The notes below the pieces were generated by a model, which saw only the letters and a program-made list of their open reading frames with translations, ran no database searches and was not told where the DNA came from. From NCBI GenBank assembly GCA_024137785.1, contig JAHRHZ010000081.1, positions 7,372,898 through 7,436,897 on the forward strand: DNA of 64,000 nt, written 5' to 3'. Positions within the stretch are counted from its first letter, which is position 1, and the number at the start of each line of letters is the position of its first letter. The DNA comes from Ginglymostoma cirratum (lineage: Eukaryota). The translations under genes were made by a program, and so were the position numbers. This document shows positions 125 to 53,473 of the stretch, in pieces.

Positions 125-383
125 GAGATAACAAGGTGTAGATCTGGATGAACACAGCAGGCCAAGCAGCATCAGAGGAGCAGGAAAGCTGACGTCTCGG
201 GCCTAGACCCTTCTTCAGAAATTTCTAAATTTGTCTTTCCTAGGTTTCTGAAATTTCTGAAGAAGGGTCTAGGCCCGAAACGTCAGTTTTCCTGCTCCTC
301 TGACGCTGCTTGGCCTGCTGTGTTCATCCAGCTCTATACCTTGCTATCTCAGATACTCCAGCATCTGCAGTTCCTACTCTATC
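125..383. mobile_element. Penelope-like family A short fold-back element
   Basis: 125-225 is the reverse complement of 250-350 (24 nt spacer), followed by an unpaired tail; hammerhead-like core at 257-284. Confidence 0.85.
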
Positions 384-559
384 TTGGCTTAGAATGTGTT
401 TTATGGTTTTAAATAAACTAACCCACAGAGTTAATCAATCTTTGATGATTGGTTGGTAGTTAAATCATTATCAATAACATGACATTCATACAGCACTTAG
501 CATCCCATGCTGGGCATGTATTCAGGCTGAAATTAGCCGAAGTGATAAATATCAGGACA

Positions 560-1050
560 GATGGCGGCAGAGTAGGACTCCTGAGCAGGATCTAATCCAC
601 TTTGTCTGCTTCTTTTCTTTTTTTCCCACTATTTTTGCATTTCTTTCCATTCTCCTTGCACCTTGCATTCTTGGGTGGCATCAACGACGTCCAGGGTAAA
701 AGCCAGTGCAGACTCGTGGCCTCAGCACGGATCCAGACTCCCAGCCCAGGTGCGGACCCGGGCTCCCGGCCTCAACATGGACTCAGGCTCGATCTCCCAG
801 CCTCGAGGTGAAGCCCGGTGTGGTCTGGGTTGGAAGGACTGTTATTCTGAACTCTTATTTCTCTACTTTTCTTATTTATTGCTGGATGTTTTATTTCTTT
901 ATTTTTCTAAAATTTCCCTTAAGAATTTGTACTTCAGAATCTGTACCTGGGTACTTGTTACCTAAGATGGTGCTGTAATTGGTGACTTGTAAACTTTCAC
1001 TATTCTCATGTCAGGGGACATGTGACAATAAAGTTAATTGTAACTCTACT
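560..1050 (+). mobile_element. Probable non-autonomous retroposon ending in TGTGACAATAAA; a related 3' end lies at about 29190-29315 on the - strand
   Basis: Both loci share cctaagatggYgc...ttYcact...tgtgacaataaag; family not identified. Confidence 0.4.
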
Positions 1051-1244
1051 TCTAAATGTAAGGTGATCAAAAGCTTGGTCAAATAGATAGCATTTAAAGA
1101 GGGTTTTGTCCATTAAAGGAGGAGAAAGAGAGATATAGGTGTTTAGGGATGGAATTCCAGAGTTTAAAATGCCTGGTTCGCTAAAAACAATCACAAAAAT
1201 GGATCGAAGGATGTTGATGCATGAGAAACTAGAGTTGGAGTTAG

Positions 1245-1370: not shown

Positions 1371-2388
1371 AAATTGGTATCAATAAACCAAAGGAGACCT
1401 GGGGAAGTAATGGAATAGAGAAGACTGTGATACTCTGCAATTGTTACAGAACAACTTTTACCTTCTATATCTATCTAAAACGGCAGTGCTTACAAGCCTC
1501 AGTTCACTATCTATATTTGCTTTTCCAGTATCCAAAACTTGAGGACAACTTGAGGATTAAAACATTTCATATCATTTCGTTGACCAGGAGTCAGAAATAC
1601 AATTTTAACTCGTTCTTTCCGGAATCTCAAAGTGCACCTCACCTCCCTCTGATTCTATTTTCTCTCATTGACTTTGGTTTAATGTCACCTAAAATCTCAA
1701 GTTTGGTCAAACTTGATCTCCTATCCTTCTGGCTATGTTATTTTGTTTTCTCACAATGACAAACATCTGTTTAGCAGATGTTTTAAAAGTTTATGTTGGT
1801 TAACTTATGTATATATTTCAGACACAGCATTTCATCCAAAGTATTTTACCTGAACTGAAAACTGAATGTTGGAACTTTAAATGTTAAAATGAGAACACCT
1901 CCCATCTTTATGAGCTCTCTGGAATTTAAGCCCAGATACAATGCATATTAAATATATATAATGGTTTGCTGACGGTGGATCTATACTTGAGTCCACTATA
2001 ATTGGATGCATACCAAAAGTGTGACTGTTGGGAAGGGAGGTGTAAACTTGTAATGTGTATTTCTTAACATAAGCAGAAAATTATATCAAGATTTGCTCAG
2101 GTCTGTTCATCCCCATGTGGTTTTCTGGGACAGAACACAAACTATACAATCTCCCCTGCAGTCCTGATTTCCTGGCTCAGATAGTAGATTTCTGGAAAAT
2201 GAGCCTGCAAAAAAAAACATTGCTTTGGAGAAAACAGACATATGTTGCTCAGTGTTCAGTTCTTGGCAGTAGTACAATACTATGGACTAGTGGCAAACAG
2301 TTGGGTGGGACCAGCAAAAAATCCAAGCCTGAAAACTGGTGAACTAATCTAAGATGATTCCATAAGAGTGCGATTTATTTTTTAAAAA

Positions 2389-2723: not shown

Positions 2724-3060
2724 ACCTACCCCACATTATCATACCCAGGGAATTCAGATGGAGTAAGGCTGATGTGGTAGGGAGATTACTTGGTGATCAA
2801 ATCCAACAAGTTTTGGGAGCTGAACTCTACCTTGGGGGGCCCAGAGTTGTGAAGGATTGTTGTAAAAACCTACTTGGTACACTAATGCCCTACAGGGAAG
2901 GAAATCTGCCCTTCTTACCTGGTCTGGCCTACATGTGACTCCAGACAGATAGCAATGATGTTGAAATGACATAGCAGGCCACTAAGTTCAAGAGGAAGTA
3001 CAGATGGGCAAGAAATGCTAACCTGCCAGTGATGCCCACATCCCATTAAAGAATTAAACT

Positions 3061-3267
3061 AAAAATGGAAAATTACTGAAGAAATTCAGCAGATCTGATA
3101 GCAAATGTAGTGAGAGAAAGCAGAGATCACATTTCAAGTCCAGTCTGAAGTAGGCATACAAAACTTTAATTCTGTCTCTCTCTACAGATGCTGCCAGACC
3201 TGCTGAGTTTCTCCAGCAATTTTCTGTTTTTGTTTCAGATTACCAGCATCTGCAGTTCTTTATTTTA
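3061..3267. mobile_element. Penelope-like family B fold-back element, diverged
   Basis: About 3061-3135 is inverted relative to about 3162-3231, plus the tail ccagcatctgcagttctt. Confidence 0.7.
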
Positions 3268-3675
3268 GAGAGTGCAGTGGGTTGGGGCATGGAGGAGCAG
3301 ACAGAAGATCAGTGAGATTCACGGGATAATAAGCATGGGGCTGGATGAACACAGCAGGTCAAGCAGCATCATAGGAGCAGGAAAACTTGACGTTTCGGGC
3401 CTAAACCCTTCATCAGAAATGGGGGAGGGGAAGAGGGTTCTGAAATAAATAGGGAGAGAGGGGGAGGCGGATAGAGGATGGATAGAGGAGAGGATGCAGA
3501 CAAGTCGAAGAGGCGGGGATGGAGCCAGGAAAGGTGAGTGTAGGTAGGGGGGTAGGGAGGAGATAGGTCAGTCCAGGGAGGACGGACAGGTCAAGGGGGC
3601 GGGATGATGTTAGTAGATAGGAGATGGGTGTGTGGCATGAGGTGGGAGGAGGGGATAGGTGAGAGGAAAAACAGG

Positions 3676-4194
3676 TTAGGGAGGTGGAGATGAGCTGGGC
3701 TGGTTTTGGGATGCGGTTGGGGGAGGGGAGATTTTGAAGCTTGTGAAATCTACATTGATGCCATTGGGCTGCAGGGTTCCCAGGCTGAATATGATTTGCT
3801 GTTCCTGCAGCCTTCGGGTGGCATCACTGTGGCATTGCAGGAGGCCCAGGATGGACATATCATCTGAGGAATGGGATGGGGAGTTGAAATGGTTCGCGAC
3901 TGGGAGGTGCAGTTGTTTGTTGCAAACCGAGCGCAGGTGTTCTGCAAAGCGGTCCCCAAGCCTCCGCTTGGTTTCCCCGATGTAGAGGAAGCCACAACGG
4001 GTACAGCGGATGCAGTATACCACATTGGCAGATGTGCAGGTGAACACCTGCCTGATGTGGAAAGTCTTCTTGGGGCCTGGGATTGGGGTGAGGGAGGAGG
4101 TGTGGGGGCAGGTGTAGCACTTCCTGCGGTTACAGGGAAAAGTGCCGGGTGTGGTGGGGCTGGAGGGGAGTGTGGAGCGGACAAGGGAGTCACG
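3676..4194 (-). pseudogene. 5'-truncated but uninterrupted frame for the PLE zinc linker and GIY-YIG endonuclease (172 aa)
   Basis: RDSLVRS...PCNRRKCYTC...NVVYCIRCTRCGFLYIGETKRRLGDRFAEH...VANHF...LQEQQIIFSLGTLQPNGIN; VVY/YIG motifs, CCHH residues and catalytic-type R, E and N present; no ATG ahead of the domain. Confidence 0.9.
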
Positions 4195-4636
4195 CGAACC
4201 ATTTCAACTCCCCCTCCCATTCCTCAGATGACATGTCCATCCTGGGCCTCCTGCAATGCCACAATGATGCCACCCGAAGGAACAGCAAATCATATTCAGC
4301 CTGGGAACCCTGCAGCCCAATGGCATCAATGTGGATTTCACAAGCTTCAAAATCTCCCCTCCCCCAACCGCATCCCAAAACCAGCCCAGCTCATCTCCAC
4401 CTCCCTAACCGGTTTTTCCTCTCACCCCAAGCCACACCCCCATCTCCTATCTACTAACATCATCCCGCCCCCTTGACCTGTCCGTCCTCCCTGGACTGAC
4501 CTATCTCCTCCCTACTCCCCTACCTACACTCACCTTTACTGGCTCCATCCCCGCCTCTTCGACTTGTCTGCCTCCTCTCCACCTATCCTCCCCTCTCTCC
4601 CTATTTATTTCAGAACCCTCTTCCCCTCCCCCATTT

Positions 4637-4664
4637 CTGATGAAGGGTCTAGGCCCGAAACGTC
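4637..4664 (+). ncRNA. Minimal type I hammerhead ribozyme motif (family A)
   Basis: CTGATGA-a-GGGT(ctag)GCCC-GAAAC-GTC: both core boxes, stem II, palindromic ACGT stem III and a GUC cleavage triplet; stem I is weak (AUUU/AAGU). Confidence 0.7.
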
Positions 4665-4730
4665 AAGTTTTCCTGCTCCTATGATGCTGCTTGACCTGCT
4701 GTGTTCATCCAGCCCCATGCTTGTTATCTC

Positions 4731-4907
4731 GGACTACAATCCCCAGTTGTCGTTGCGGCGTTGACGTTACACGCACGGCGCGTGCGTACGTCGGACGAAA
4801 GCCAATCAGCCGTAGAGCATGCGATTGACGTGGGGCCCCGCCCCCAGGTTCCGCACACGCGCAGAGTTCTGGGTTTCACCCTCGGCTGCAGTCAGCTCCC
4901 GCCCGCC
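4731..4907 (+). promoter_or_regulatory. CpG-rich RAB8B proximal promoter and 5'UTR
   Basis: ACTACAATCCCCA (ACTAYRNNNCCCR, ZNF143/THAP11 motif) 4733-4745; CRE-like TGACGTTA 4762-4769; palindrome ACGCACG-gcg-CGTGCGT 4771-4787; CCAAT box AGCCAATCAG 4800-4809; TGACGTGG 4826-4833; GC box GCCCCGCCCCC 4835-4845; high CpG density in a CpG-poor window. Confidence 0.85.
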
Positions 4908-11715: not shown

Positions 11716-12916
11716 TAGACATAGAGTCATACAGCATGGAAACTGATCCTTCAATCCAACTTGTCTGTGCTGACCAGATGTCCTAAATTAACCTAGTTCC
11801 ATTTGCTAGCATTTGGCCCCATCCCTCTAAACCCTTCCTGTTCATGTACCCATCCAGATGCTCTTTAAATGTTGTAATTGTACCAGCCTCCACCACTTCC
11901 TCTGGCAGCTCGTTACAGACAAGCACCATGCGTGAAAAAGTTGCCCCTTAGGTCCTTTTAAATCTTTCCCCTCTCACCTTAAACCTATGTCCTCCCACGC
12001 TGGGGAAAAGATCTAATCTATTTACCTTGCCCCTCGAGATGTTATAAACCTCTATAAGGTCACTGCTCGCCCTCTGACACTCCAGGAAAAATAGCCCCAG
12101 CCTTTTCAGCCTCTCCCTAAGGCTCAAACCCTCCCTTGTAAATCTTTTCTGAACCCTTTCAAGTTGCATAGCATCCTTTCTATAGCAGGGAGACCAGAAT
12201 TGCACACAGTATTCCAAAAGTGGCCTAACCAATGTTCTGTACAGCTGCAACGTGACCTTCCAACTCCTATACTCGATGCACTGACCAATAAAGGCAAGCA
12301 TATAAAACGTCGTCTTCATTATCCTGTTGACCTGTGACTCCACTTCCAAGGAACTGTGAACCTGCACTCCAAAGTCTCTTTGTTCAGCAACACTCCCCAT
12401 GACCTTACCATTAAGTGTGTTAGTCCTGCCCTGACTTGCCTTTTCAAAAGGCAACAACTCCCATTTGTCTAAATTAAACTCCATCTGCCACTCCTTGGGC
12501 CATTGGCCTATCTGATCAAGATCCCGTTCTAATCTGTTGTTCATTATACCTCAATTTTGGTGTCTTCTGCACATCTACATCATTCATATAAATGACAAAA
12601 AGTAGTGGCTCCAGCACCGATCTTGGTTGCACATCACGAGTCGCAGGCCTTTTGTCTGAAAAGCAACCCTCCACCACCAACCTCTGTCTTCTACCTTTGA
12701 ACCAGTTCTGTATACAAATGTTTCTGATGAAGGATTTAGGCCTGAAACGTCAAGTTTTCCTGCTCCTATGATGCTGCTTGACCTGCTGTGTTCATCCAGC
12801 CCCATGCTTGTTATCTCGGATTCTCCAGCATCTGCAGTACCTTTTATCTCTGTATACAAATGGCTAGTTCTGCTTGTATTTAACCTTGCTAACCAGTCCA
12901 CCACGAAGAACATTGT
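11716..12916 (-). mobile_element. CR1 LINE 3' part (RT C-terminus and 3'UTR), interrupted by a PLE insertion
   Basis: ORF 11948-12544: WQMEFN..K, LYRTLVRPLLEYCVQFWSP, LERVQKRFTR, GHRFKV, all typical of CR1 ORF2. Confidence 0.9.
12721..12850 (+). mobile_element. Family A mini-element (hammerhead motif plus 3' end only) with a 14 bp TSD
   Basis: TCTGTATACAAATG at 12707-12720 and 12849-12862; core at 12724-12751. Confidence 0.9.
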
Positions 12917-13473
12917 CAAACACTTGTTCTTGACTATTTGCTTAAATCAGCCATGTTGGACAGCTTTGTGACTCTAGCACAACTTGATGTTTGTGTGTTG
13001 TGTACTAGAACTACTTTGAACTACCAAGTTTTTGGGGCAAAGCATTTTGTACTGAGCTTAGTCAATGTTCCTCATCGTAGACTGGTTAGCAAGGTTAAAT
13101 ACAGGCAGAACTAGCCAGTTGTATACAGAACTGGCTTGAAGGTAGAAGCCAGAGGTTGGTGGTGGAGGGTTGCTTTTCAGCCTAGTAAAGGAATGCAACA
13201 GTTGTTGACACAAGTTGTTATTCTCCTTGGATGCTCTTGGCTACTGATTTGATGAAATAATTAAATCCATTTGGATGTGAACGTAATGAGTGTTAATGTG
13301 ATGGATTAGACTTTTAATTCATTTGTTTTATATCCAGCTAATAGTGAAAGGATTATTGCCTAAGAAAAATATGTTTACACGATCGGTGCTAATCTTCAGA
13401 AAAGAATTGGAATTTTTTAAGAATTGCAGCATTGGTAGGGGAGAAAGTATGGTGAGTGGGATTCATTGTTGCA

Positions 13474-13605
13474 GAGATAATAGGAACTGCAGATGCTGGA
13501 GAATCGGAGATAACAAAGCATGGAGCTGGATGAACACAGCCGGCCAAGCAGCATCGAAGGAGCAAGAAAGCTTGATGCTTCGGGCCTAGACCCTTCATCA
13601 GAAAT
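13474..13605 (-). mobile_element. Family A mini-element
   Basis: Reverse complement of the 12721-12850 type, including the tail; degenerate hammerhead core at 13574-13601. Confidence 0.85.
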
Positions 13606-13974
13606 GATTTCTGCAGGCTCAGTCGGAAGAAATAACCTTTGTGTTCTGTTCTGTAATTCTAAAATTTTTGTTCAGCCTTCAGAGATTAACGTTTCTCTAG
13701 ACAGAGTCCATGTATATGTTTATTTAGTCAGTTTTATTACAGCTCACGCATCACAAAACTTACTGATTACTTGTTCCTATAGAAGTATTTTTAATCAACC
13801 TCTTTGACCTCTTTGGTCTCAGGCATCCCTACTAGATAACATTTGTGCTTTATGAAGAAATTGGCATGTAGTCCTAGTTCTTAACTGTACATGTGTAGGT
13901 GTGTATTCCAAGATAGTTTTGTCTGTACTGATTCTTTCAGTTGTTGATTGGTCTAACGCAAATGTACAATACTG

Positions 13975-14590
13975 CTGTTGTTAGCAATCTGAAATAAAAA
14001 CAGAAAACACTAGAAATACACAGGAAGCCAGGCAGCATCTATGGAAAGAGACATGTTACAGGTTGATGGCCTTGCATCGGAATTGGAAAAGAAGTTGGAG
14101 ACTGAATAGGTTTTCAGCCAGTATAGAGACTGGGGGAAGGGGGAGTGGCGTGAAGAACAAAAGGGAAGAACTGAGAAAGAATAAAAGCATTACCTGACAA
14201 AAGTGAAAGGCTGAAGAGTTGGGAGAGCAAATAAGGATGCACAAGACATGTCCAGGTCAACATAACTAATTCACAGCTGACAGTGGCTGTCCAGAAAAAA
14301 ACAACACAGAATTTCCGGTCTGAAATTGTTAAATTCAGTGTTGAGCACAGGAAGATCTAAAGTGTCTAAATGATCAATGAAATGTTGTTCCGTGAGCTTA
14401 CGGTTTCCTTTGAGTAGTTTGCAAAAGTGATCACTTTGGGTGTGTGGCAGAGAACGAACATTACAAACAATTGGAAGCTGGTGATCATGCTTTGTGTGTG
14501 AAGTGGTTAGTCAATCTGCATTTGTTTTCCTTAATGTAGAGGATTCAGCCCTGTGAGCAGTGAATACAATATGTACTCAAGTTGGAGTCG
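13975..14590 (-). mobile_element. Old Penelope-like 3' fragment (family B-like end plus decayed endonuclease region)
   Basis: atctgaaataaaaacagaaaa...ggcagcatct end followed by sequence resembling the antisense GIY-YIG tail. Confidence 0.5.
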
Positions 14591-14599
14591 TTCACATAA

Positions 14600-19455: not shown

Positions 19456-20159
19456 TACTAAACAAGTACCTTCTGTGCTGGAATCTCAAGCTGATTTATA
19501 TGGAATTTTTTTATACCTAGTTCAACTTTGGATATTAGAATCAGAATCACAGATATCAGTTGTTCTCTGAAGTTATGATATCCCTACCTCCAGTTATCTG
19601 TATTTGGATGCAGATTCAAGTCTTCTTTATCTGCATCCTTTACTGGGTAAATGTACACTAGTAAAATGAGTTGTCTTGAGCTAATATCTACTTGTAGCCT
19701 TTTTATAAAGCTGTGTGGCATGTTTCCTGTTATAGTTTAGACTATTCAGTGTTCATGGCAGTTCCAGCATGCTAAGTACAGGATTTTGTTTAATCTGTGG
19801 TCTTACTTCATACAAGACATTGTTTGTGTCAGTGAAAGCTTGCTTACATAATTATGTTTAGGTCAGGTGGGTTAGACATGGGAAATCGGCGTTAGGGGAA
19901 TGAGTCTGGGTGGGATGCTCTTTGGAGGGGCAGTGTGGACTTGTTGGGCCGATTATCTCATGATTGAGAAATATGAATAAATTTAAAAATACACTAGATT
20001 ATATATTTCACTTGAAAGTTGTGGAATCCTTTTTTAAAATAATTGCACTGGGTAAATGAAAACCTAATGGAATGGACATCCATTAAGGTAAATTAGATCA
20101 ATGTTGAAAACATAGTTTGGTAATAGATAACACGCCACACTACATCGGTGAGACTAAGC

Positions 20160-20687
20160 GTAGACGCAGACCGTTTTGCAGACCATCTGTGCTCTGTACG
20201 TGACAAATGACAACACCTTCCAGTCGCCAACCATTTTAACTCCCACTCCCTGGGTGACATGTCCATCCTGAGCCACTTCCAGTGTCGCAGTGACACCACC
20301 TGCAAGCTGGAGGAGCAGCACCTCATGTTCCACCTCGGGAGCCTACAGCCCGATGGCCGAAACATGGAATTCACCAGCTTTAAAATCTCCCCATCCCTGG
20401 CGTCATCCGCCTCCTTGACCTGACACAACTTGTCCATCTTCTCTCCCACCTATTTGCTCCTCCCATCCTGCTGACCAATCCCTATCTCTCCTAACCTGCA
20501 CTCACCTATCACCATCCCACCTACCTTCCTCAGCCCCACTTCTCCTCTCTCCATTTGTTTCCCAGCTCCCTTCCCCCCCACCCCCCCACCATTTCCGAAA
20601 CGTCAGCTTTCCTGCTCCCTGGCCTGATGTGTTCCTCCAGCTCCATACTGTTATCTGACCCCAGCATTTGCAGTTCTTGCTATCTTA
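20160..20687 (+). mobile_element. Older Penelope-like 3' fragment with a GIY-YIG remnant
   Basis: tacatcggtgagactaagcgtaga (YIGETKRR), PVANHFNS, DMSILS, KLEEQHLMF; ends with the ccagcatttgcagtt tail. Confidence 0.85.
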
Positions 20688-24777: not shown

Positions 24778-25177
24778 CAGGTAGTTCTCCTATAATGCGA
24801 TAGTTCTTGTGTAGTTCGCGCTGTAGAAAATCGCCATAGAAAATCGTGTTATAGGGAAATTGCTATACCTATACAGCAGAAAGTTCGTGTTATACGAACA
24901 ATGTCCGCCATTCATCATAGATAACAAGGTGTGGAGCTGGATGAACACAGCAGGATAAGCAGCATCATAGGACCAGAAAAGCTTGACGTTTCGGGGAAGG
25001 GTCTAGGCCCGAAACATCAAGCTTTCCTGCTCCTATGATGCTGCTTGGCTTGCTGTGTTCATCTAGCTCCACACCTTGTTATCTCGGATTCTCCAGCATC
25101 TGCAATTCCTACTATCTCCGCTATTCATCAGTCGTGTTACATCCAATTCGTGTCAATGAAATTAGCAGAATTACCTG
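24778..25177. mobile_element. Tc1/mariner (Tigger/pogo-like) MITE, split by a PLE hairpin
   Basis: TA|CAGGTAGTTCTCCTA ... TAGCAGAATTACCTG|TA: 15 bp TIRs with 2 mismatches and a TA duplication. Confidence 0.7.
24919..25118. mobile_element. Family A short fold-back element with a 14 bp TSD
   Basis: Inverted arms plus a 33 nt tail; TCCGCCATTCATCA 24904-24917 and TCCGCTATTCATCA 25117-25130. Confidence 0.9.
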
Positions 25178-25255: not shown

Positions 25256-25489
25256 AAAAACTGAAAGAACTGCAGATGCTATAAATCAGGAACAAAAACA
25301 AAGTTGCTGGAAAAGCTCAACAGGTCTGGCAGCATCTGAGAAGGAAAAAACAGAGTTAAAGTTTTGGGTCCGGTGACCCTTCCTCTTTCTGAATGAGGAA
25401 GGGTCACTGGACTCAAAATGTTAACTCTGTTTTTAACTTCACACATGCGGCCAAAGCTACTGAGCTTTTCCAGCAACTTTGTTTTTGTT
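25256..25489. mobile_element. Family B fold-back element with a perfect 14 bp TSD
   Basis: ACAAGAGCCTTCAT at 25242-25255 and 25490-25503; arms about 25291-25385 and 25394-25489; 35 nt tail on the left. Confidence 0.9.
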
Positions 25490-27157: not shown

Positions 27158-27892
27158 AGATAACAAGGTGTACAGCTAGATGAACACAGCAGGCCAAGCA
27201 GCATCAGAGGAGCAGGAAGGCTGACGTTTCGGGTCTAGACCCTTCTTCAGAAATAGGGGAGGGGAAGGAGGTTCTGAAATAAATAGGGAGAGGGGGGAGG
27301 CGGATCGAAGATGGATGAGAGGAGACAGACAGGTCAAGGAAGCGGGGAAGGAGCCAGTAAAGGTGAGTGTAGGTGGGGAGTTAGGGAGGAAATAGATCAG
27401 TCCAGGGAGGGCGGACAGGTCAGGGTGGCAGAATGAGGTTGGTAGGTAGGAGATGGGGGTGGGGCTTGAGGTGGGAGGATGGACAGGTTAGGGAGGCGGG
27501 GACGAGCTGGGCTGGTTTTGAGATGCGATGGGGGAGGGGAGATTTTGAAGATTGTGAAGTCCACATTGATACCACTGGGCTGCAACCTTTGGGTGGCATC
27601 GTTGTGGCACTGCAGGAGGCCCAGGATGGACATGTCGTCTGAGGAATGGGAGGGGGATTTGAAATGGTCGTCTCTACATCGGGGAAACCAAGCGGAGGTT
27701 TGGGGACCGCTCTGCAGAACACCTACGCTCAGTTCGCACTAAACAGCTGCACCTCCCAGTCGCGAACCATTTCACCTCCCCCTCCCATTCCTCAGATGAC
27801 ATGTCCATCCTGGGCCTCCTGCAGTGCCACAATGATGCCACCCAAAGGTTGCAGGAACAGCAACTCTTATTCCGCTTGGGAACCCTGCAGCA
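27158..27892. mobile_element. Family A element with inversion (- arm 27158-27670, + arm 27671-27892, 3'-truncated)
   Basis: GIY-YIG remnants on both strands; intact hammerhead core at 27223-27250 (-). Confidence 0.9.
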
Positions 27893-28369
27893 CCCCCTCC
27901 CCGCCAAAACCAAAATCTCTGCCCCTCTGTGTACCTGCCCTCTGGCCGCACCCCTCCCTGCCCATTTATCCGCAAGCCCCTGCCAGTACACACAAACGAG
28001 CATGCATATGCTCCCACCCCGTTTACCAAGACAATGGTTTGAATATGCTGAACAGCAATGCATGATGAGCAAATATGCATTTTGGAGTTGCTGCTAGTTA
28101 GACTAACTTTTAAGTTCTGTTGGTAGGCTGTTTGATGGAATGCAATGAAGTAAAATCCCTTTCTTCTCCTGTCCCTGGAGAGGAAGATGCATTATGTGGA
28201 GTAGGGAGTAAGTGACTTAGTGATAATGTCACAGGACTCCTCACACAGAGGCTCAGGATAGTGCTGAATTTTTGGTTCAGGTCCCTCCGTGGCAGTTGCT
28301 GGACTTTAATTTCAGATTTGTGAATTGAATTCAAAACCACATCTTGATGGTGATCATGAAATTATTGTC

Positions 28370-28462
28370 ACAAAAACAGAAATTGCTGCCAGAAATTGCA
28401 GGCCTGGCAGCATCTGTAGAGAGAAAGCAAAGTTAATGTTTGCAGTCCTCTGACTCTTCAGC
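28370..28462 (-). mobile_element. Family B PLE end fragment
   Basis: acaaaaacagaaattgctg...ggcagcatctgtagagagaaagc..agttaatgttt. Confidence 0.65.
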
Positions 28463-30449
28463 ATGCAGTTTAGGTCAGGAGTTATGATCATAACAGAACA
28501 CAAACTGAGCATTGGTAGGGAGGCTTTTGTTGTAAGTGCCTCTCGGTAGTGCTGTTGACTTCCATCATTTTGCTGATAATTGAAAGGAAGCTCATTTAGG
28601 TAATAAGTGACTGGGATTTTACTGCTTTCTGTGGACAGGACATAACCTGGCAGTTTGTCAAATAGACGCAGTGCTCGAGCTTATCTAGGGGATGTGCAAA
28701 TTCTGGAGTATAGGTCTTTAGTACCAGTGTTGTGATGATGTTAGGGCTTGTAGGCTTTGCTGCATCCAGTGCTTCAGCATTTGTTGATTATGTGGAGAGA
28801 GTTTAATTGAAGACTGGCATTTCTGTTGCTGGGGACCTCAGGAAGCTGCAGAGATGGTTAATCCACAAGGCACTTTTGGCTGAAGATGGTTGTGAATATT
28901 ACAGCCTTATGCTTAGCACTGACATGCTGGGCTTGTCCATTGTTAAAGATGGATATATTTATGGAATCTCCACCTCCAGTTAGTTTAAGTTCCATGCAAC
29001 TGATAACTAACTCTGAATCCATGTTCTTAAGTCAGGAAGGATGCGATCTGCTCAACTTTGGAACCAGTGGAAGCCAGTAAAAATAAGAATGCTGTATGAA
29101 TGGGACTTTATGCAAGTTTGGATGTGATTATCTTTATGGAAGATGTGACATAAAAGAGACTGTGGGAGGGCATTGGAATAATCAATCAAGGTTGATTGAT
29201 TTGAGCTTTATTGTCACAAGTACTCAAGTATGGGAGTGCAGTGGAAAGTGCACTATGTTGCCACACACACTGCGCCATCTTAGGTGTGAAGATACCTTGG
29301 TACAAAACTTTGTTTCTCTAAGTTAGTACTTGCATCTAAGTTAAAAGTAAAGCATTACTGTCACTCTTAGTATAAGTAAGAAATAAAGTTAAAAGTTAAC
29401 ATTTCTGTCCTTCCTATTATTAAATCGAAAAATAAAGTATTAAAGGTAAAAGTTCAACAAGGCTGTCCTAAATGCACTGAAAGTAAGGTTCTAGCATCTG
29501 TAAATTGGTTGAGACGGTTATGGTCTGACACTTGCAAAGGAGGAAGTTTGGTGTCTTTGAATTCGTGCTGATTTGTGGTTAAAAGCTCACCTCAGTGTCA
29601 AATGGAACACCAAGCTTGCAGTTTGGTTCATCCTCAGACAATTGCTGGAGAAGGAAGCAGTGTTTGCAACAGTCATCAAAGATGATGGCTTCGCTCTTTA
29701 GGAAGAGTGGAAAAGATATCAGCTCATTCAGTATTGAAGCCTTGCGTTGGACATACTGGAGAGAGCTGATAGTAAATGTAGTGCCAGGTGGTGGTGGTGT
29801 GAAATATTGTTTGGAAGTGAATGAACGGAAGAGAGGTAGAATTACACTTTGCAATTTTGAGGACCTCTTGATGGCTTAAATAGTAATTGGTTAGTTTGTT
29901 TGCCATGTTCAAGAAGTTACTGCAGTAATTTAACTTCTGATTTGAAGGGTGGTCTCATGAGAATTTGAGATCCTGCTGTAGAACAAAATATTGTATGGTA
30001 ATCCCAGTCATGTAGATTTAATGACTAAATCATTGAGTGTGAATGTTTCAATTCTTTTTTCTGCCTCTGAAAACCAAAGCATTCGTTCTCACATTGTGTG
30101 GTTTCTTTTTGTGACCTTATTTAACTAAAACTAGGGAAGAGGTGAGCAAGCCAGCCCTCGAAGATGGCAATCTCCAGTAATGTATGTGTAACTGTAGAAT
30201 TAGGATAGAGGAGACAAATTAGTGGCTGGAGAGATGGGGTAAGAAGGTGCCCTTGAATCTGGAAATTCTCACATTGGTTCTGGAGGAGTTGGACCTGCAC
30301 ACACTAACCACAGTGCGACTCAACGACCAGACCAGTATCTTCATACATGGCTTGCTGGTGTTGGTAGAAGGATTTAGACTAACCTGACAGTTGGGTAGGA
30401 GCAAGAATGCTTTTTCTAAGCGATGCAGGAAGAACTTGGAGAAGGGAAT

Positions 30450-30587
30450 AAGAAAGGGTCACCGGACCCGAAATGTTGACTCTGATTTTTTTTTTTCTTC
30501 ACAGATGCTTCCAGACCTGCTGACCTTTTCCAGCAACTTTGTTTTTGTTTCTGATTTACAGCATCCGCAGTTCTTTCGGTTTTTATT
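30450..30587 (+). mobile_element. Family B mini-element (partial hammerhead plus 3' end and tail)
   Basis: agggtcaccggacccgaaatgttgactctg...cagcatccgcagttctttcggtttttatt. Confidence 0.8.
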
Positions 30588-31336
30588 AAGAATAGTAAAG
30601 TATTTGGTGAGCTGACAGTAAAATCTAAATTAGGTTTATAGTACATGTATATCAATGTTTGAATGGGGTTAGCAAGGTGGAGGGGCAAGTAGCTTCACAG
30701 AAATATGTTATCATTTATCTCAACAAAGCACAGGATTCTGTATTAAAGGATTGATTATGGAGTTCAAGCTTGTTTAAAAACAAATAATGTTTAATTTGAG
30801 TTTTTGCTCTCCGTAGTAATTTAAACAAGTGACTGATAATTGCCCCATTGTCCTATATGGAACTGGAAACCGAAATAAGCAACAAAAATGAGGGGAATAG
30901 TGAAGCCTATGGAACGAAAAGGACAGTGACAGGAAGCAATGCCACAGAGATTGATTGATTGTTTTTTGACTGGAGGTTACAGTGGTGGTTCCCAGAAGTC
31001 AGCACTTGGACCAGTTCTTTTATTGACATTTTTAAATAGATTGCAGACTGATATGCAGTGTGTATTATGAAATTTGCAGATCACACAATTTGGAAGTATT
31101 GTGATACAGTACAAACTTTGGGAAGACATGGGCTACTGGAATGATCAGCCACCTGTCAAATGAGGTGAAGTTTATTTTAGTAGGAACTATGAGGAGAGTT
31201 GGTATTAAGTCAAGGGCACAATTCTAAGCTGGATGTTAGAATGGACACCTGTGGGCAGGAGTCATCAGAGAAATTGTGGATCCTATTGCTGTTGCTGCTG
31301 ACCAGGGTCCTACCCTTCCATAGCAAAATGTAGCTT

Positions 31337-32090
31337 TTATTTAAAGGTATACTTTCCTCATAAAAATATCTTTATGTACAGACATAGTCACTGGAGCAAA
31401 CAATGACAGAAATTGCTGGAAAAGCTCAGCAGATCAGGCAGCATCTGTGGAGAGAAATCAGAGTTAACGTTTTGGGTCCAGAACGTCTGAACCATTAACT
31501 CTAATTTCTGCCCATAGATGCTTCCAGACCTGCTGAACTTTTCCAGCAATTTTTGTTTTTGTTTCTGATTTCCAGCATCCGCAGTTGTTTTGGTTTGTAG
31601 TCACTAGAGCAGTTTGATTTTGGTGCATTTTCTTTAAAAATGGAGAATGAACAAACCCAAGGCATTTCTTACTTATACGAGACTATATTTACATTTGAGG
31701 CACTGGGAAGGCCTGATAACTGAACGGATCCTCATTGTACTTCGGCAGAAAGACCTTAGATAGTGATCTTTCTCCACTGTGCCTTGCCGGCAGCTGTGCC
31801 AAGCATTAGTGTGTCCCTCAGCACATCGTTCTGGACCTTGGAATGTGTCAGTCTGCACACTCGATCAAGGTTAACCCCTTGCTCTGGAAGACCCAACAGG
31901 TTTGGGGCAGACCGAAGAGCATCTTTAACCAAGCCGATGTTTGTCTTAATGTGCATTCTGGGGACTAGCCCATACAGCAAAGAGTCCTGTGTCATGGAGC
32001 TGCTTGGGTCAAACCTTGACAAAAGCCACCCCATCTCCCACCAGACCTCCTTTGCAAAGGCACGTTCCAGAAGGAGACGTGTGATAGTCT
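31337..32090 (-). mobile_element. Tx1/L1-clade non-LTR retrotransposon 3' end, interrupted by a PLE hairpin
   Basis: ORF 31756-32115 ETITRLLLERAFAKEVW...QDSLLYGL...VKDALRSA...CRLTHSKVQ resembles a decayed C-terminal zinc-knuckle region (E..H...C..A..VW). Confidence 0.65.
31399..31597. mobile_element. Family B fold-back element with a 14 bp TSD
   Basis: TAGTCACTGGAGCA 31385-31398 and TAGTCACTAGAGCA 31598-31611; inverted arms plus a 34 nt tail. Confidence 0.9.
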
Positions 32091-34186: not shown

Positions 34187-35035
34187 CAATCCGCCATCTG
34201 CAATCCGACCCCACCACCAAGACATTTTTCCCTCCCCATCCTTATCTGCTTTCCGAAGGGACCACTCTCCATGACTCCCTTGTCCTCTCCACACTCCCTT
34301 CCAGCCCCACGACTCCGGGCACTTTTTCCTGCAACTGCAGGAAGTGCGATACCTACCCCTACACCACCCCACTAACCCCATACCAGGCCCTAAGAGGACC
34401 TTCCACATCAAACAGGTTCGCAACAAACAACTGCACCTCCCAGTCGCGAACCATTTCAACTCCACCTCCCACTCCTTGGACGACATGTCCATCCTGGGCC
34501 TCCTGCAGTGCCACAGCAATGCCACCTGAACGTTGCAGGAACAGCATCTCATATTTCGCTTGGGAACCCTGCAGCCCAATGGTATCAATGTGGACTTCAC
34601 AAGCTTCAAAATCTCCCCTCCCCTGATTGCATCTCAAAACCTGCCCAGCTCGTAACTGCCTCCTTAACCTGTCCTCCCACCTCAAGCCCCACCCCCATCT
34701 CCTACCTCCTAACCTCATCCCGCCCCCTTGACCTGTCCGTCCTCCCTGGACTGACCACTCCTCTCCCTAACTCCCCACCTACACTCACCTTTATTGGCTC
34801 CAACCCCGCCTCCTTGACCTGTCTGTCTCTTCTCCACCTATCTTCTCCTTTATCCATCTTCTATCCGCCACCCCCTTTCTCCCTATTTATTTCAGAATCC
34901 CCGCCCCCGCCCCCTCCCCCTCCCCCTCCCCCTCCCCCATTTCTGAAGAAGGGTCTAGACCCGAAACGTCAGCTTTCCTGCTCCTCTGATGCTGCTTGGC
35001 CTGCTGTGTTCATGCAGCTTCACACCTTGTTATCT
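34187..35035 (+). mobile_element. Family A 5'-truncated single-orientation copy with no tail and a perfect 14 bp TSD
   Basis: CAGTATAATTGTTT at 34173-34186 and 35036-35049; linker and endonuclease remnant with an internal deletion; intact hammerhead core at 34943-34970. Confidence 0.92.
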
Positions 35036-35934
35036 CAGTATAATTGTTTAATTTTTTCCCTGTGGGCATTGCTGACTAGGCCAGCATTTATTGCCCATCT
35101 CTAATTGCCCTTAAATGATGAGAGCTGGTGAGCTGCTGCCTTGAACTGCTCAAGTCTGTGGAAGATACATGCACCCATAATGTTATCAGGAAGAGTGTTA
35201 AGACATTGGCATGTTTTGGAAGAACTTGACTCTCTGGAGGGTAAAATGTTGGGAGACTGGCCAGGGATGCATGAGAATAGATAAGTCCAGATATTGGATT
35301 TTCAAAGTAGTTGGAAGAAGTTAAGAAACTAATGACATCTTGATGGTTAGGCCTAACTCATTTTGACAGCAAGGATTTTCTAACATGTTATAAGCTTAAT
35401 ACTCTCGGATTATCCTTAAGGGCTTCCATCTATTGTACGCTTCTCGTACCTGTTATATATAGTGCACTATGAACACTTAGAAACAGTTTTTTCAAAGAGT
35501 ACTTAATTGACTAATTCATACCTCATCTATATTAATGGCTCTTAGATGAGGCCTTTCTTTGTTCAAAGCATTGTGATGTGGAGTCAGCACTTTTTACTCT
35601 GCAGGGCCAAATCTACAGTGCCGAAATCAACTGAAACAACCTTGTGGCCAGTGTCTCTGTAATTCCAATTTGAAAGCAACGAATTAAATTGTATTCATTT
35701 GAAGGTTGCCTGTATGTTTCACTAAGCAGGAACTGCACTGCTGCGTCTGCGCAGTCTAACAGACTGCCTACTACTGTGGCTTGACAAAATGCCATTGCAT
35801 CACTGAAGGAAGACAACTCTAGTTGCCTTAGTTCATCTTAAGCATAATCCTCTGACCCGGTCTCTTGCTGCATGAGGTGTTAGAGGATTTGTCTCCTCTA
35901 TTCTGCTTGAAATCAAATCTCATCTCGGGACGTT

Positions 35935-41932: not shown

Positions 41933-42089
41933 GATAACAAGGTGTAGAGCTGGATGAACACGGCAGGCCAAGCAGCATCATAGGAACAGGAAGTCTTGAC
42001 GTTATGATGCTGCTTGGCCTGCTGTGTTCATCCAGCTCTACACCTTGTTATCTCGGATTCTCCAGCATCTGCAGTTCCTACTATCTCTG
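41933..42089. mobile_element. Smallest family A fold-back element (50 bp arms) with a 15 bp TSD
   Basis: Arms 41933-41982 and 42003-42052, tail 42055-42087; GAACATAATGCAGGA at 41920-41934 and 42090-42104. Confidence 0.92.
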
Positions 42090-49231: not shown

Positions 49232-50750
49232 GAGATAACAAGGTGTAGAGCTGGATGAACACAGCAGGCCAAGCAGCATCAGAGGAGCAGGAGAGCTTGA
49301 TGTTTCGGGCCTAGACCCTTCTTCAGAAATGGGGGAGGGGGAGGGGGTTCCGAAATAAATAGGGAGAGGGGAGGAGGCGGATAGAGGAGAAGATAGGCAG
49401 AGAGGAGACAGACTGATCAAAGAGGCGGGGATGGAGCCAGTAAAGTGAGTGTAGGTGGGGAGGTAGGGACGAGATAGGTCAGTCCAGGGAGGACGGACAG
49501 ATCAAGGGGGCGGGATGAAGTTAGTAGAGGTAGGAGCTGGGGGTAGGGCTTGAGGTGGGAGGAGGGGATAGGTGGGAGGAAGGACAAGTTAGGGAGGTGG
49601 GGACGAGCTGGGCTGGTTTTGGGATGCGGTAGGGGGAGGAGATATTTTGAAGCTTGTGAAGTCCACATTGATACCATTGGGCTGCAGGGTTCCCAAACGG
49701 AATATGAGTTGCTGTTCCTGCAGCCTTCAGGTAGCATCGTTGTGGCACTGCAGGAGGCCCAGGATGGACATGTCGTCTGAGGAATGGGAGGGGGAGTTGA
49801 AATGGTTCGCGACTGGGAGGTACAGTTGTTTAGTGCGAACCGAGCGCAGGTGTTCCGCAAAGCGGTCCCCAAGCCTCCGCTTGGTTTCCCCGATGTAGAG
49901 GAGGCCACAACAGGAACAGCGGATGCAGTATACCACATTAGCAGATGTGCAGGTGAACATCTGCTTGATGTGGAAAGTCTTCTTGGGACCTGGGATGGGG
50001 GTGAGGGGGGGAGGTGTAGGGGCAGGTGTAGCACTTCCTGCGGTTGCAGGGAAAAGTGCCGGGTGTGGTGGGGCTGGAGGGGAGTGTGGAGCGGACAAGG
50101 GAGTCACGATGAGAGTGGTCCTTCTGAAAAGCAGATAAGGGTGGGGACGGGAAAATGTCTTTGGTGGTGATGTCGGATTGCAGATGGCGGAAGTGTCGGA
50201 GGATGATGCATTGGATCCAGAGGTTGATGGGGTGGTACGTGAGGACAAGGGGAATTCTGTTTTAGTTATTATTGCAGGGAGGAGGTTTGAGGGATGAGTT
50301 GCGGGAAATGTGGGAGACACGGTGGAGGGTGTTCTCGACCACCGAGGCGGGTGGAGTTGCGGTCTTTGAAAAACGAGGACGTAAACCTCCTCCCATCCCC
50401 AGCTCCTACATACTAACCTCATCCCTTCCCCTTGACCTGTTCGCCGTCCCTGGACTGACCTATCTCCTCCCTACCTTCCCACCTACACTCACCTTTACTG
50501 GCTCCATCCCTGCCTCTTTGACCGGTCTGTGTCCTCTCCACCTATCTTCTCCTCTATCCATCTTCTATCCTCCTCCCCCTCTCTCCCTATTTATTTCAGA
50601 ACACTTTTCCCCTCCCCCATTTCTGAAGAAGGGTCTAAGCCTGAAATGTCAAGCTTTCCTGCTCCTCTGATGCTGCTTGGCCTGCTGTGTTCATCCAGCT
50701 CTACACCTTGTTATCTCAGATTCTCCAGCATCTGCAGTTCCTACTATCTC
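49232..50750. mobile_element. Largest family A copy (- arm to about 50381, + arm about 50386-50750 with tail), 14 bp TSD
   Basis: TGTAAAGCTATGGA 49220-49233 and TGTAAAGCAATGGA 50751-50764; linker and GIY-YIG region with a frameshift and a stop codon. Confidence 0.92.
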
Positions 50751-53130
50751 TGTAAAGCAATGGAAATGCTTTTCGGTACAATAATTGCTGTAATTCTACA
50801 AAATACAAAAGACTAAAACCACTTCCTTGCAAAGGATTTATTTTTGTGTGAATTTGTCCACTGCATTGTAGCTATCTCCAGCAACTATGTTTCACCTACT
50901 TATGGAAATGCCTTGAATTATTTTGGATGGCAGTGGTGTGAACAAGCACACCTACTTCATGTGAAGATATTTCCCACAAATTTTGAAAGTGACTGATTTC
51001 AGATTTTATTCGAATTTCTGGTTTTATTCATTTCTTAAACCGATAGAGAATATCGGCATTTAAATTGAATTACTGGTGTTAAACTATTAGTCTTTCTTAT
51101 AGAACTTGGGAATTACGTTTGAAGAAACTCTTCTTCTTTTATATATGTGACAAGATATTGAAGATTCTGATGTTGGCAAATTTATCTTCAGTGTAACTCA
51201 GTTGTACTCTTCATCCTTTGGCTAATAGTTCACAAAAAACTGTCTGCATGTAGAATGTACAAAACAGAAACAGACCGTTTTGGCCAATCAGAACATTTTG
51301 GCATTTACTCTTAAGCCTCCTCCTATCCTTTCTCATCCAACTCTCATCAAGATTTCTAGATGTGGAGTGTAAAATTCTTTATCATCGCCTATATGTAGGT
51401 TGGAGATAAAACTGATTGAGCTGATGTTATGGAGTACAACACGGAGTTCTTCTTTAAAGATTGTTAATCTTGACCCCCCCCCCCAAAAAAAAACTTCTTG
51501 ACCAGATACCATTTTCCTAATGTGGGACGACTTTTAGCAGGCTCATATGTGAGGCTTACATGCCTGTATGAAACAAATCTGGGGAACCCATCCATCCTGA
51601 AGCAGTTAAATAATTAATGACTAAAAGGACTTGGGTGGTTTTTAGATTGGTCTAACATCAGCCGGTTGAGCACAATCAACCAGGATTGGTAATCAACTTC
51701 CAATCCAGCAACTGGGTTTTCCAGCAAATGTGTGGACATAAGTAAAAGAGAATAACTGTCTTCTCTGCTGGTATCTAATACTTTGGCCACACTGGCTTTT
51801 ATATCTCCTCATCGTTGTCTCTGAGAAACAAAAAGTGACTTTAACTGACTGAGATTATTTGTTAGTCCAACCATTTTGAATGCAGCAAAATCTAAGCATG
51901 GCTGAGAGTCCTGCTCATTCTTGAGCACAAAAGTTCTACATGACAGGCGGGATGTTGTCAGGCTCTGCACCCTTTGCTGTATCAACTGCTTTGAGCTGTT
52001 TTGGATGTCACTTTAAGTGAATTAACCTTGAGATGAATGAAGATTTTCTCCAGCGATGGGTTATCCTCTCGATGCATCTTACTGAGGATGGTTGTAATTG
52101 ATTCAATATTGTCTTTAAACACACTCACACTGAACTTCATCAGTGAGGTTCAGGATGTTGTGAAGGCTTCTCCTGCTGTTACTGGTTTAGTTTAATTGCC
52201 TAAGCCCATTCATGACTGAATGTTATATTGATGCAGAGCCTTGATCTGGTCCTTTGGTTGCAGGAGCATTAACTTTGTGTAATATGCTATTTCCGCTGTT
52301 TAATATGTATGTAATCTTCTGTTGTGGCTTCAGGTTGACATCTCATTTTTAGCTATGTCTTGTAGATATGCTTTCCTACATGCCAAGATTGGTTCCCTGG
52401 CTCGATGTCAGTGGTAGGTTGAGAAAAATGCCAGTCATGAGGTTACAGGTTGTGGTGCAATGCAACTTGTTGATGGCCTAAAATGCTTCATGGATGTCTA
52501 GTTGTGAGCAGGGCTAGATTTGAGTTAATTTGTTTTAAATCTATTCTATTTAACACGGTGGATCTTGAGCCAGAGAGTAAGGTCATAGTTTGCTGTGTTG
52601 CACTGACCCTGCACTCCTATTTACTGATGATCTACATGCACCTCACAGCACTGGAGAGTGCAGCAGAACTGCCTTTGCAAGATCCTCCAAATCAGATGAT
52701 AACAGAAACAGTCCAAGAGTGACATCTTTTTTCCTGTCAACCTGCCCAGCATTGAAGTGATAATTACACAAAACCAGCTGAAATAGCAGGAGAGGAAGCA
52801 AGTAATCCTTGATGTTGAAAGACTGCTGAAGGAGAAGGGAATGATGTCTCCATGATGAGTAAGTCAATTAGGGCGAAACGAAATAGAATTTTCTAACATG
52901 TTGGGTTTTGCACCACCTGTGACCTGAGTCCAGCTTTCCAGTATCATTCAAGGATTGGTCATTAGTGGTGATAGTAAACCACAGTTGGTGATGGCTGTTA
53001 CAGATTGATGCAGTGCAAAAGGAGGCTGTATGACCCATTGTGTTTGTCAGCTGTCCAACCAAGCATCTCATTTAATGTCATCAGATCTTCTCTCAGTCTT
53101 CTCTTCTCCAAGGCAATTAGTGTCATATAT

Positions 53131-53473
53131 AGATAACAAGGTGCAGAGCTGGATGAACACAGCAGGCCAAGCAGCATCAGAGGAGCAGGAAAGCTGATGT
53201 TTCGGGTCTAGACCCTTCTTCAGAAATGGGGGGAGGGGAAGGGGATTCTGAAATAAATTGGGAGAGATGGGGAGATGAATAGAAGATGGACTTTCTATTC
53301 CCCTCCCCCTATTTATTTCAGAATCCCTTTACTCTCCTCCCATTTCTGAAGAAGGGTCTAGACCCGAAACGTCAGCTTTCCTGCTTCTCTGATGCTGCTT
53401 GACCTGCTGTGTTCATCCAGCTCTGCACCTTATTATCGCTGATTATCCAGAATCGGTAGTTCCCACGATCTCT
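53131..53473. mobile_element. Family A fold-back element with a degenerate 14 bp TSD
   Basis: Arms about 53131-53285 and 53293-53437; AATTAGTGTCATAT 53115-53128 and AATTAGTATCATCT 53475-53488; intact hammerhead core at 53346-53373. Confidence 0.9.

Follow-up and report, generated by a model that had tools for sequence, protein, structure and literature searches.

Inverted truncated copies of two Penelope-like element families in 64 kb of shark DNA, and their probable formation at insertion

Loci of two Penelope-like element families

The stretch analysed here (the window) is 64 kb of Ginglymostoma cirratum DNA and contains 17 loci of Penelope-like elements (PLEs), which fall into two families, A and B. 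The loci were counted in this window, and genome-wide counts are partial. Ten of the loci are inverted, head-to-head double copies (10/17, 95% CI 0.36-0.78 within the window). The original prediction had listed ten sites as inverted pairs of the same 3' end; inverted PLE sequence is indeed present at each of the ten positions it named, but at 27158 the right arm lacks the 3' end. Self-BLAST recovered nine of the sites with E values from 1e-31 to 0, and the tenth, at 3061, was recovered with a family-B query (E 1e-10). Where scored, the arms of the fold-backs are 83-99% complementary.

Seven fold-backs are short (157-345 bp), four of them from family A. That at 124..384 (261 bp) is made of a tail-less arm (125-222, element on the minus strand), about 30 nt of filler and a tailed arm (253-384, plus strand), both 5' ends lying at -98, and has a weak target site duplication (TSD) at 108-117/380-389. 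At 24918..25119 (202 bp), the arms reach -77 (tail-less) and -89 (tailed), meet at a blunt junction (24995/24996) and are flanked by a 15/17 TSD. At 41933..42089 (157 bp), arms reaching -72 (tail-less) and about -51 (tailed) share one base, and the TSD is 18/19 counting shared bases; at 53130..53474 (345 bp), they reach -160 (tail-less) and about -140 (tailed), with a TSD of 11/12. Family B contributes the fold-back at 3061..3268 (about 208 bp; left arm tail-less, right arm tailed, no significant TSD), that at 25256..25489 (234 bp), where the tailed arm is the left one, with the element on the minus strand (TSD 17/18 at 25238-25255/25486-25503), and that at 31398..31597 (about 199 bp; TSD 13/14 at 31385-31398/31598-31611).

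Two family-A fold-backs are long. At 3322..4733 (1,412 bp), the left arm extends to -876 and contains a linker and GIY-YIG frame on the minus strand (3679-4203), while the right arm starts from -579; arm blocks are 91-99% complementary, and neither a tail nor a TSD is present. At 49232..50752 (1,521 bp, TSD 15/17), the tail-less arm (49232 to about 50395) encodes on the minus strand, with frameshifts, the C-terminal part of the reverse transcriptase (RT), the linker and the endonuclease (EN), and the tailed arm occupies about 50397-50752. A tenth fold-back, of family A, is broken (27158..27891): its left arm, with a hammerhead, extends to -574, its right arm covers only -668..-449 (EN coding) and has no tail, and the TSD is missing. 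A graded size series from 1.5 kb down to 0.15 kb had been proposed; the span stands (157-1,521 bp), but no complete fold-back between 345 and 1,412 bp occurs in the window.

Seven non-inverted loci had been overlooked, four of family A (12721, 13473, 20140 and 34160) and three of family B (13971, 28370 and 30464). The single 132-bp end at 12721..12852 (plus strand) runs from -97 to the tail within a 14/14 TSD (12707-12720/12849-12862), and in the opposite arm (13063-13180) of the older inverted repeat that it entered, the site is still empty. A single 135-bp end at 13472..13606 (minus strand) runs from -99 to the tail, with a TSD below significance. Two family-A copies are direct, both on the plus strand: an old tailed one from -666 (20125..20685), with a weak TSD and perhaps an inverted stub of 8 nt in front of it (20125-20132), and a 5'-truncated, tail-less one (34187..35038) with an internal deletion in EN and a 14/14 TSD (34173-34186/35036-35049). 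In family B, we found a single tail-less end (28366..28470, minus strand; TSD not found), a single tailed end (30446..30590, plus strand; no significant TSD) and an older family-B-type end (13962..14577, minus strand; 76% to the B query), which is linked to EN by running into a decayed GIY-YIG remnant (14319-14577, tblastn E 8e-6). None of the 17 loci contains direct tandem units, and the window holds neither a partial tandem nor a full-length PLE copy, the longest arm measuring 1,163 nt. A DNA pattern scan for extra copies gave none in viral contigs; five matches in metagenome contigs, only 19-27 nt long, were dismissed as chance.

Target duplications, tails and junctions

TSDs were scored at 16 loci, 27158 being left out, and duplications of 12-18 bp were found at eight of these. 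Among the ten inverted loci, the inverted 5'-truncated copy lies within one clear TSD at six (24919, 41933, 49232, 53131, 25256 and 31399; 12-18 nt counting shared bases), a quality matched by at most 1/398 random site pairs. The TSD at 125 is marginal (9/10, a level met by 3.5% of random pairs), and none was found at 3322 and 3061. The left-flank 10-13-mer of 27158 is found nowhere else in the window.

A one-sided tail had also been proposed. Exactly one tail is present in eight of the nine two-ended fold-backs and two tails in none; the exception is 3322, where it is on neither arm. The family-A tail measures 33-35 nt, and the break point in family B is homologous. On their 3' side, the copies stop at either of two exact positions separated by 33-35 nt, with the tail or without it; the two borders of the tail at 50720..50752 (plus strand) correspond to two exact element ends in public contigs.

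Junctions differ at all ten fold-backs (seven aligned, three compared as printed sequence), as had been claimed. They are blunt, overlap by 1-2 nt or are filled, and most of their centres in the window are not clean palindromes. In all six two-ended family-A fold-backs, the two arms match each other at the principal subfamily columns (43, 55, 67, 83, 116, 119, 121 and 122) and at column 118, and the four short family-A hairpins represent four haplotypes. Subfamily marks of 53131 are common to the EN-coding copies 27158 and 34160, and those of the single end at 12721 to the EN-coding 3322. Family-A 5' ends recur near -97 to -99, a little upstream of the hammerhead, a clustering that is not significant (P 0.06 under a uniform, 0.15 under an exponential model); when 5' ends are mapped on contigs, private changes of the reference copy clip the alignments at 50652.

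Coding content and hammerhead

The claim that long copies carry GIY-YIG coding DNA proved correct: in Pfam, the frame at 3679-4203 matches PF01541 with E 2.8e-5 and 24.7 bits (cutoff 22.6). The frame at 49730-50470 matches it below cutoff (E 0.0017), and no Pfam family was found in the 27663 fragment or the 34168 frame. The window EN is 93% identical over 175 aa to the whale-shark protein P0001, which has an RT motif (RYIDD; RVT_1 E 9.3e-5, below the Pfam cutoff) and EN in one ORF, and the predicted link of these ends to PLE RT/EN genes is thereby borne out. The linked window copies extend back only to P0001 residue 210, the RT-EN linkage being seen through relatives, namely P0001 and others of 750-950 aa with 41-53% identity. 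Protein P0002, compared with the window frame 34394-35104, is continuous from RT via EN into the hammerhead region. No solved PLE structure was matched (best E 0.1). A search for the tail as source of the ORF N-terminus gave one unrelated chimeric match only, and an N-terminal match was absent for 25 of 45 long relatives.

A CX2-5CxxC motif is present in the RT-EN linker of the window frame and of P0001, as well as in 37 of the 45 long relatives. By sequence, families A and B are taken as PLE families with an EN linker of Neptune type; Neptune is defined by this motif upstream of GIY-YIG (PMC8557442), but Nematis has the same linker and Neptune is paraphyletic in that paper.

A strict minimal-hammerhead core was recognized by sequence in 8 of 26 arms, all of family A (0 of 9 family-B arms). 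The putative core in the tailed arm of 49232 (50623..50650, plus strand), with a predicted cut site at about -66, is of the minimal type I defined in PMC4209133, where metazoan PLE hammerheads have the same core and palindromic positions 15.2-16.2. That paper also describes, in Schistosoma, paired motifs lying 100-700 bp from each other on the two strands, which probably come from truncated PLEs. In the short hairpins, the strict core occurs in 2 of 14 arms (the right arms of 125 and 53131); five of the seven, namely those at 24918, 41933, 3061, 25256 and 31398, have no intact core. The Rfam hammerhead model was unmatched at gathering score and even at E 5, and Rfam miRNA models match the hairpins sub-threshold, with E down to 6e-9. 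The pairing probability of helix II is 0.0 in both whole core-bearing hairpins and near 0 in three of four single arms (0.85 in 53131R only); in this weak folding test, the core of these two hairpins appears to be buried in the long duplex. Among ten short family-A 5' ends, not one coincides with the cut site predicted for the hammerhead near -66; the closest is found at -72. A body-tail stem common to both families is conserved; as an RNA structure it was rejected as unsupported, with 0 of 14 pairs changed on both sides.

Origin of the hairpins

An inverted truncated copy with a one-sided tail is a published PLE pattern (PMC2377424, PMC8557442, PMC3846280), and for D. virilis this literature describes inverted repeats as the PLE structure seen most often. 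Fold-back, claimed to be a dominant outcome in this lineage, is a common one here. According to the same three papers, canonical EN+ PLE insertions share with the shark copies the head-to-head arrangement, a 30-40 bp tail at one end, a TSD, a C-terminal GIY-YIG and heavy 5' truncation. Unlike those insertions, the shark ones often have both copies reduced to 50-160 nt, the whole insert being a small hairpin, and their TSDs are of 12-18 bp, against 8-10 bp in reported A. vaga PLEs. A search of openly available literature, assessed mostly from listings, returned no account of shark PLE fold-backs, of tail-to-tail joints in sharks, of PLE twin priming or of MITE mislabelling; passages of PMC12910113 contain nothing relevant.

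We propose, with a probability of about 0.6, that the hairpins are truncated insertions of the two families, each formed at its own insertion when both cut target ends primed reverse transcription. Staggered nicks about 14 nt apart would yield two 3'-OH ends, of which one would begin cDNA synthesis where the tail ends and the other where it starts. Each cDNA would stop early, the two would be joined by end-joining and the gaps filled, and the size series would reflect how early each had stopped. Formation at insertion, as originally suggested, is most likely because junctions differ, arms share subfamily marks and the short family-A hairpins are of four haplotypes; by sequence, the pattern fits such an origin rather than MITE-like amplification. 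The two primings appear coupled, since eight of nine two-ended fold-backs have exactly one tail; independent twin priming without coupling fits poorly (at least eight one-tailed of nine, P about 0.02 for p = 0.5).

In 5' inversions of L1, twin priming likewise involves two target 3'-OH ends that prime on the element RNA; each event leaves one TSD and a junction of its own, where microhomology is scarce or absent. Unlike the situation in L1, where the second primer acts at a variable internal site and the 3' end is not duplicated, both arms of the shark PLEs begin at fixed sites 33-35 nt apart, hence a palindrome.

The mechanism would be carried over to the shark lineage by analogy with in vitro data on PAc, a Poseidon-clade element of Anolis carolinensis, whose protein nicks and extends both strands, initiates synthesis at two positions within the RNA, one on either side of the tail, and has no need of hammerhead cleavage (PMC11167929). 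As in the shark families, two fixed ends bound the tail and the hammerhead lies just upstream without setting the ends; unlike them, PAc belongs to the Penelope/Poseidon clade, for which the cysteine linker is not described, and the paper describes tandem loci. Its in vitro work shows no inverted products, and the word 'inverted' is absent from three text supplements, which counts against the insertion model, as do the missing TSDs at 3322 and 3061. Gene conversion after insertion may also have homogenised the arms.

Public contigs add a further observation. In run X6, loose ends accumulate at two positions, with 616+476 contigs for the tail-less end and 502+746 for the tailed one; their flanks are mixed (agreement about 0.4). 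An exact tail-to-tail joint, in which the tailed end meets an inverted tail-less end (50752-50718 on opposite strands, with no shared letters), occurs in 39 contigs of X6. The insertion model does not predict this recurrent joint. In an alternative that we hold to be rather unlikely, the fold-back is made before integration: RNA or first cDNA would prime itself, so that the tail forms the loop of an intermediate, either a hairpin or a closed one, which the endonuclease opens at a tail border. The products would be one-tailed head-to-head units and, in rare cases, a tail-to-tail joint that had stayed unopened, in line with the one-tail pattern; self-priming was proposed in PMC3846280 and a tail from EN-mediated resolution in PMC8557442. 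However, the joint is found in only one contig of X1 and is not seen within the window, one old junction multiplied or a re-insertion at the element's own tail would yield it as well, the junction centres are mostly not clean palindromes, and the results for PAc speak rather for priming by the target at the two sites.

A more elaborate version is speculative and still less probable. Here, the joint would be an unopened hairpin or circular intermediate with the tail as loop, and the arms of about 100 and 130 nt would be strong-stop-like run-off cDNAs, for which priming takes place in the 5' terminal repeat and synthesis runs out at a transcription start a short way upstream of the hammerhead; long copies would then need a retrovirus-like strand transfer, and the families would be a very large natural record of the PLE integration cycle. 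Should either the tail-to-tail joint or the -98 run-off end be confirmed, this would point to a specific intermediate. As the family is very abundant and its two ends are exact to the base, tabulating it across the genome could serve to test the way in which inverted copies and tails arise in PLEs.

The original prediction had suggested that the mini-hairpins may form a non-autonomous class containing a ribozyme; we consider such a class, itself transcribed and inserted again by means of the PLE protein, quite improbable. Short copies are very abundant in public contigs of two related organisms, 5' ends recur near -98, and other non-autonomous PLE derivatives exist (PMC8557442; bioRxiv 10.64898/2026.07.22.740005). 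Moreover, five head-to-head-type joints in X6 are deep (243-1,316) and could mean amplified junctions, against the insertion model, but each is a single contig with fewer than 30 letters on the short side. A self-amplifying class is argued against because every site has a unique junction; the haplotypes, the scarcity of intact cores and their apparent sequestration in the duplex weigh the same way, and no short-hairpin joint is among the best-supported 15 of 663 joints. Short hairpins formed at insertion are likely dead ends, not templates. Non-LTR retrozymes, described in the same preprint with one chondrichthyan reported, are also short, non-coding, derived from PLE pLTRs and of type-I hammerhead; they are direct tandem repeats with a ribozyme per unit, whereas the shark loci consist of inverted pairs or isolated ends, in most cases lacking a core, and identity with them was rejected on these grounds. 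The supplements of the preprint may contain a related chondrichthyan family.

That the pairs arose after insertion, as neighbouring independent copies or through a rearrangement on the spot, or that fold-back reads produced them as assembly artefacts, is a very doubtful reading: 27158 and 3322 are visibly damaged and the 49232 junction is unspanned among the contig pieces listed, but a single TSD frames both arms at six sites, the arms differ by 1-17% plus indels, unlike an artefactual fold-back, and their subfamily is identical. MITEs or other DNA-transposon derivatives moved by cut-and-paste, suggested by the small size and inverted arms, can hardly be entertained given TSDs that are long and variable rather than fixed at 2-9 bp, the asymmetric tail, the variable junctions (in the window, the genome-wide view being partial), the occurrence of the same ends, with TSDs, in non-inverted copies, and continuity with GIY-YIG/RT coding DNA, a linkage that already largely refutes them. 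This small hairpin, common in shark introns, is explained as PLE debris, and annotators should call it neither a MITE nor a microRNA precursor.

Inverted Penelope-like insertions in a repeat-rich window

The ten sites named in the original prediction are all real inverted structures of Penelope-like elements (PLEs), here called fold-backs, in which two truncated copies of an element stand head to head. In the window (64 kb, 41% GC, rich in repeats), family A is represented by 17 terminal arms from 11 loci, of which seven are inverted, and family B by nine arms from six loci, of which three are inverted. The inverted share is 10/17 (0.59, CI 0.36 to 0.78), or 11/17 if an 8-nt stub is counted: the bases at 20125-20132 match an inverted tail-less end just before an old direct copy, within a weak target duplication (TSD), and this locus may be a fold-back whose second arm is very short.

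The identification as PLE ends was also right, given the linkage of these ends to GIY-YIG and reverse transcriptase (RT) coding DNA. Coding DNA in the long arms specifies a GIY-YIG nuclease and a linker that contains a CX4CxxC motif. In one ORF, a whale-shark protein (P0001) combines an RT motif with thumb, linker and nuclease; its identity to the frame at 3679-4203 is 93%. A second protein, P0002, reaches into the hammerhead region, thereby connecting the family-A end with the RT gene. Whale shark (93%) and zebra shark (87%) supply the closest named proteins, which points to a probable orectolobiform-type shark as host; relatives of 750 to 950 aa show 41 to 53% identity, and the same linker is found in 37 of 45 relatives of at least 740 aa. 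A CX2-5CxxC-type linker is described as a mark of Neptune and Nematis, not of Poseidon (PMC8557442). At 13971, a family-B-type end passes into the decayed remains of a GIY-YIG sequence (E 8e-6). Over 73 nt, family-A and family-B ends agree at about 75% of positions, and their break point falls at the same aligned place. Two more old PLE remnants have no recognised end: a nuclease fragment at 36823-37065 (+, E 9e-9) and an RT fragment at 46506-46640 (+, E 7e-6).

Such structures follow a known pattern, of which the window holds a well-preserved, real case with new family members. The standard PLE insertion is described as an inverted 5'-truncated copy beside the 5' end, plus a 30 to 40 bp tail at one end (PMC8557442, PMC3846280), and in D. 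virilis the inverted-repeat structure is given as the most frequent form (PMC2377424). Hammerhead pairs on opposite strands, 100 to 700 bp apart, were noted in 2014 (PMC4209133), and a PLE expansion in whale-shark introns has been reported (10.1101/443036). Our literature search, outside subscription journals, turned up no paper that deals specifically with these shark hairpins. For the sizes, 'graded series' is an overstatement: seven hairpins measure 157 to 345 bp and two others 1,412 and 1,521 bp.

We looked for TSDs at 16 of 17 loci, with 398 random site pairs as the control. They were clear at eight (six fold-backs, 12721 and 34160), marginal at 125 and 20125, and absent at six. The end at 12721 is inserted in an older inverted repeat (12656-13180, arms of about 130 nt); it occupies one arm, and the other retains the empty site, with the target present once; this provides a built-in empty-site control.

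Formation of the fold-backs

Element coordinates are counted backwards (negative) from the tail-less 3' end, taken as 0, with the tail at +1 to +35. All ten junctions in the window are different. The family-A arm pairs start at -98/-98, separated by about 30 nt of filler (125), -876/-579 (3322), -77/-89 (24919), -574/-668 (27158, whose right arm has lost its 3' end), -72/-51 (41933), about -1163/-320 (49232) and -160/about -140 (53131); the centres of the three family-B fold-backs also differ. In 6/6 two-ended A fold-backs, the main subfamily columns are the same in both arms. The four short A hairpins represent four haplotypes, 53131 having marks in common with nuclease-coding copies. Distinct junctions, arm-matched marks and separate haplotypes thus uphold the proposal that each hairpin formed at insertion. 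Long arms of separate insertions sometimes start almost alike, at 20140 and 27672 (-666/-668) and at 4193 and 27668 (-579/-574), which may be due to chance or to preferred stop sites.

How could such pairs be generated? The PAc protein is described as nicking and extending both target strands and as initiating at two internal positions of the RNA, one at each border of the tail (PMC11167929). Applied to the present elements, nicks about 14 nt apart would supply two primers, one starting at the tail end and the other at the tail start; both cDNAs would terminate early and be joined head to head, and repair would leave a single TSD. Direct copies, either tailed (12721) or tail-less (34160), would be single-primed products. 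Nine fold-backs have two 3' ends; eight of these are tailed on one arm, 3322 on neither arm and none on both. Under independent choice of sites at 0.5, such an excess of one-tailed pairs would have P of about 0.02 (hand-worked), which suggests that the two starts are coupled. By analogy with PAc, we give this two-primer, target-primed formation as a whole a probability of about 0.6.

The main rival model, put forward in PMC3846280 and PMC8557442, starts from a self-primed hairpin or closed intermediate, which the nuclease then opens. An unexpected result in public contigs speaks for it. When contigs of two sequencing runs, X1 and X6, were aligned to the 49232 copy, an exact opposite-strand joint from 50718 to 50752, linking the tailed end to the inverted tail-less end with the tail as loop, occurred in 39 contigs of X6 and one of X1; in X6 it had 53 letters on the short side and zero shared letters. 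This joint was not found in the window. The same product would result from an element that re-inserted at its own tail or from amplification of one junction. We consider the self-primed route unlikely.

Amplification of existing junctions was seen neither in the window nor in public contigs, where the 15 joints with the best support, out of 663, include no short-hairpin junction; genome-wide it may still occur. The family is very abundant in public contigs, with at least 419,834 contigs aligned in X1 and at least 152,564 in X6; counts from this alignment are lower bounds, and private changes of the reference copy clip alignments at 50652. In X6, among the 12 loose-end rows listed of 2,899, loose ends are concentrated at two places, the tail-less end (616+476) and the tailed end (502+746), and their flanks are mixed. 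Counting against formation at insertion are five joints of head-to-head type in X6, at depths of 243 to 1,316; each is a single contig with a short side below 30 letters.

Arm starts and the hammerhead

The starts of four family-A arms, from three insertions, lie between -97 and -99; they coincide with the A of an initiator-like motif shortly before the hammerhead. Called with the initiator consensus, the motif matches 1.3% of window positions and five sites in the 356-nt arm, and the clustering in family A is not significant (P 0.06 to 0.15). At 125, a short echo of the arm's first bases stands just ahead of each of the two arms. Several family-B arms start near the first hammerhead box, the boundaries of the two single B copies being uncertain. 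The -97 to -99 starts could correspond to run-off at an RNA 5' end. For D. virilis, the RNA start is placed 46 bp ahead of an intron rather than at the hammerhead (PMC2377424; PMC4209133).

Family A has a minimal type-I hammerhead of the sort described for metazoan PLEs (PMC4209133), which an Rfam search left undetected. The strict core is kept in 8/26 arms overall, in 2/14 arms of short hairpins and in none of the nine family-B arms. In the two hairpins that keep it, the predicted fold buries the core, a weak test since helix II is also unformed in three of four single arms. No family-A arm in the window has its 5' end at the predicted cut site near -66, in agreement with PAc, for which insertion is described as independent of hammerhead cleavage (PMC11167929). 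With so few cores, their burial and the absence of cut-site ends, the idea of a ribozyme-containing class is not supported, and neither is that of a new ribozyme-bearing, non-autonomous one.

Neighbouring gene and other repeats

The young-looking insertion at 3322 stops about 175 bp upstream of the start codon in the first exon (4909-5032; Pfam Ras E 3e-10) of a Rab GTPase gene, presumably RAB8-type. There, without tail or TSD, it directly abuts an ACTACA-type promoter motif (4733-4750), which we take to be ZNF143-associated, at the edge of a CpG-rich stretch. The insertion could affect the promoter of this gene.

Decayed coding remnants at 11713-12550, 57030-57613 and 62515-63327 are similar to one another and read, in our opinion, like CR1-type LINE 3' ends; Pfam gave no match for the two such frames tested. 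A separate interspersed repeat family, with copies near 2377, 6299, 8664, 42136 and 47524, also makes inverted pairs (2387-3055 and 6570-6702, the latter consisting of two interleaved inverted repeats) and has a weak tRNA-like match at 6306-6394 (E 2.4). The PLE hairpins at 53209-53360 and 41933-42052 match unrelated microRNA precursor models with E down to 6e-9, far below gathering scores, and PLE hairpins are thus a source of false microRNA calls.
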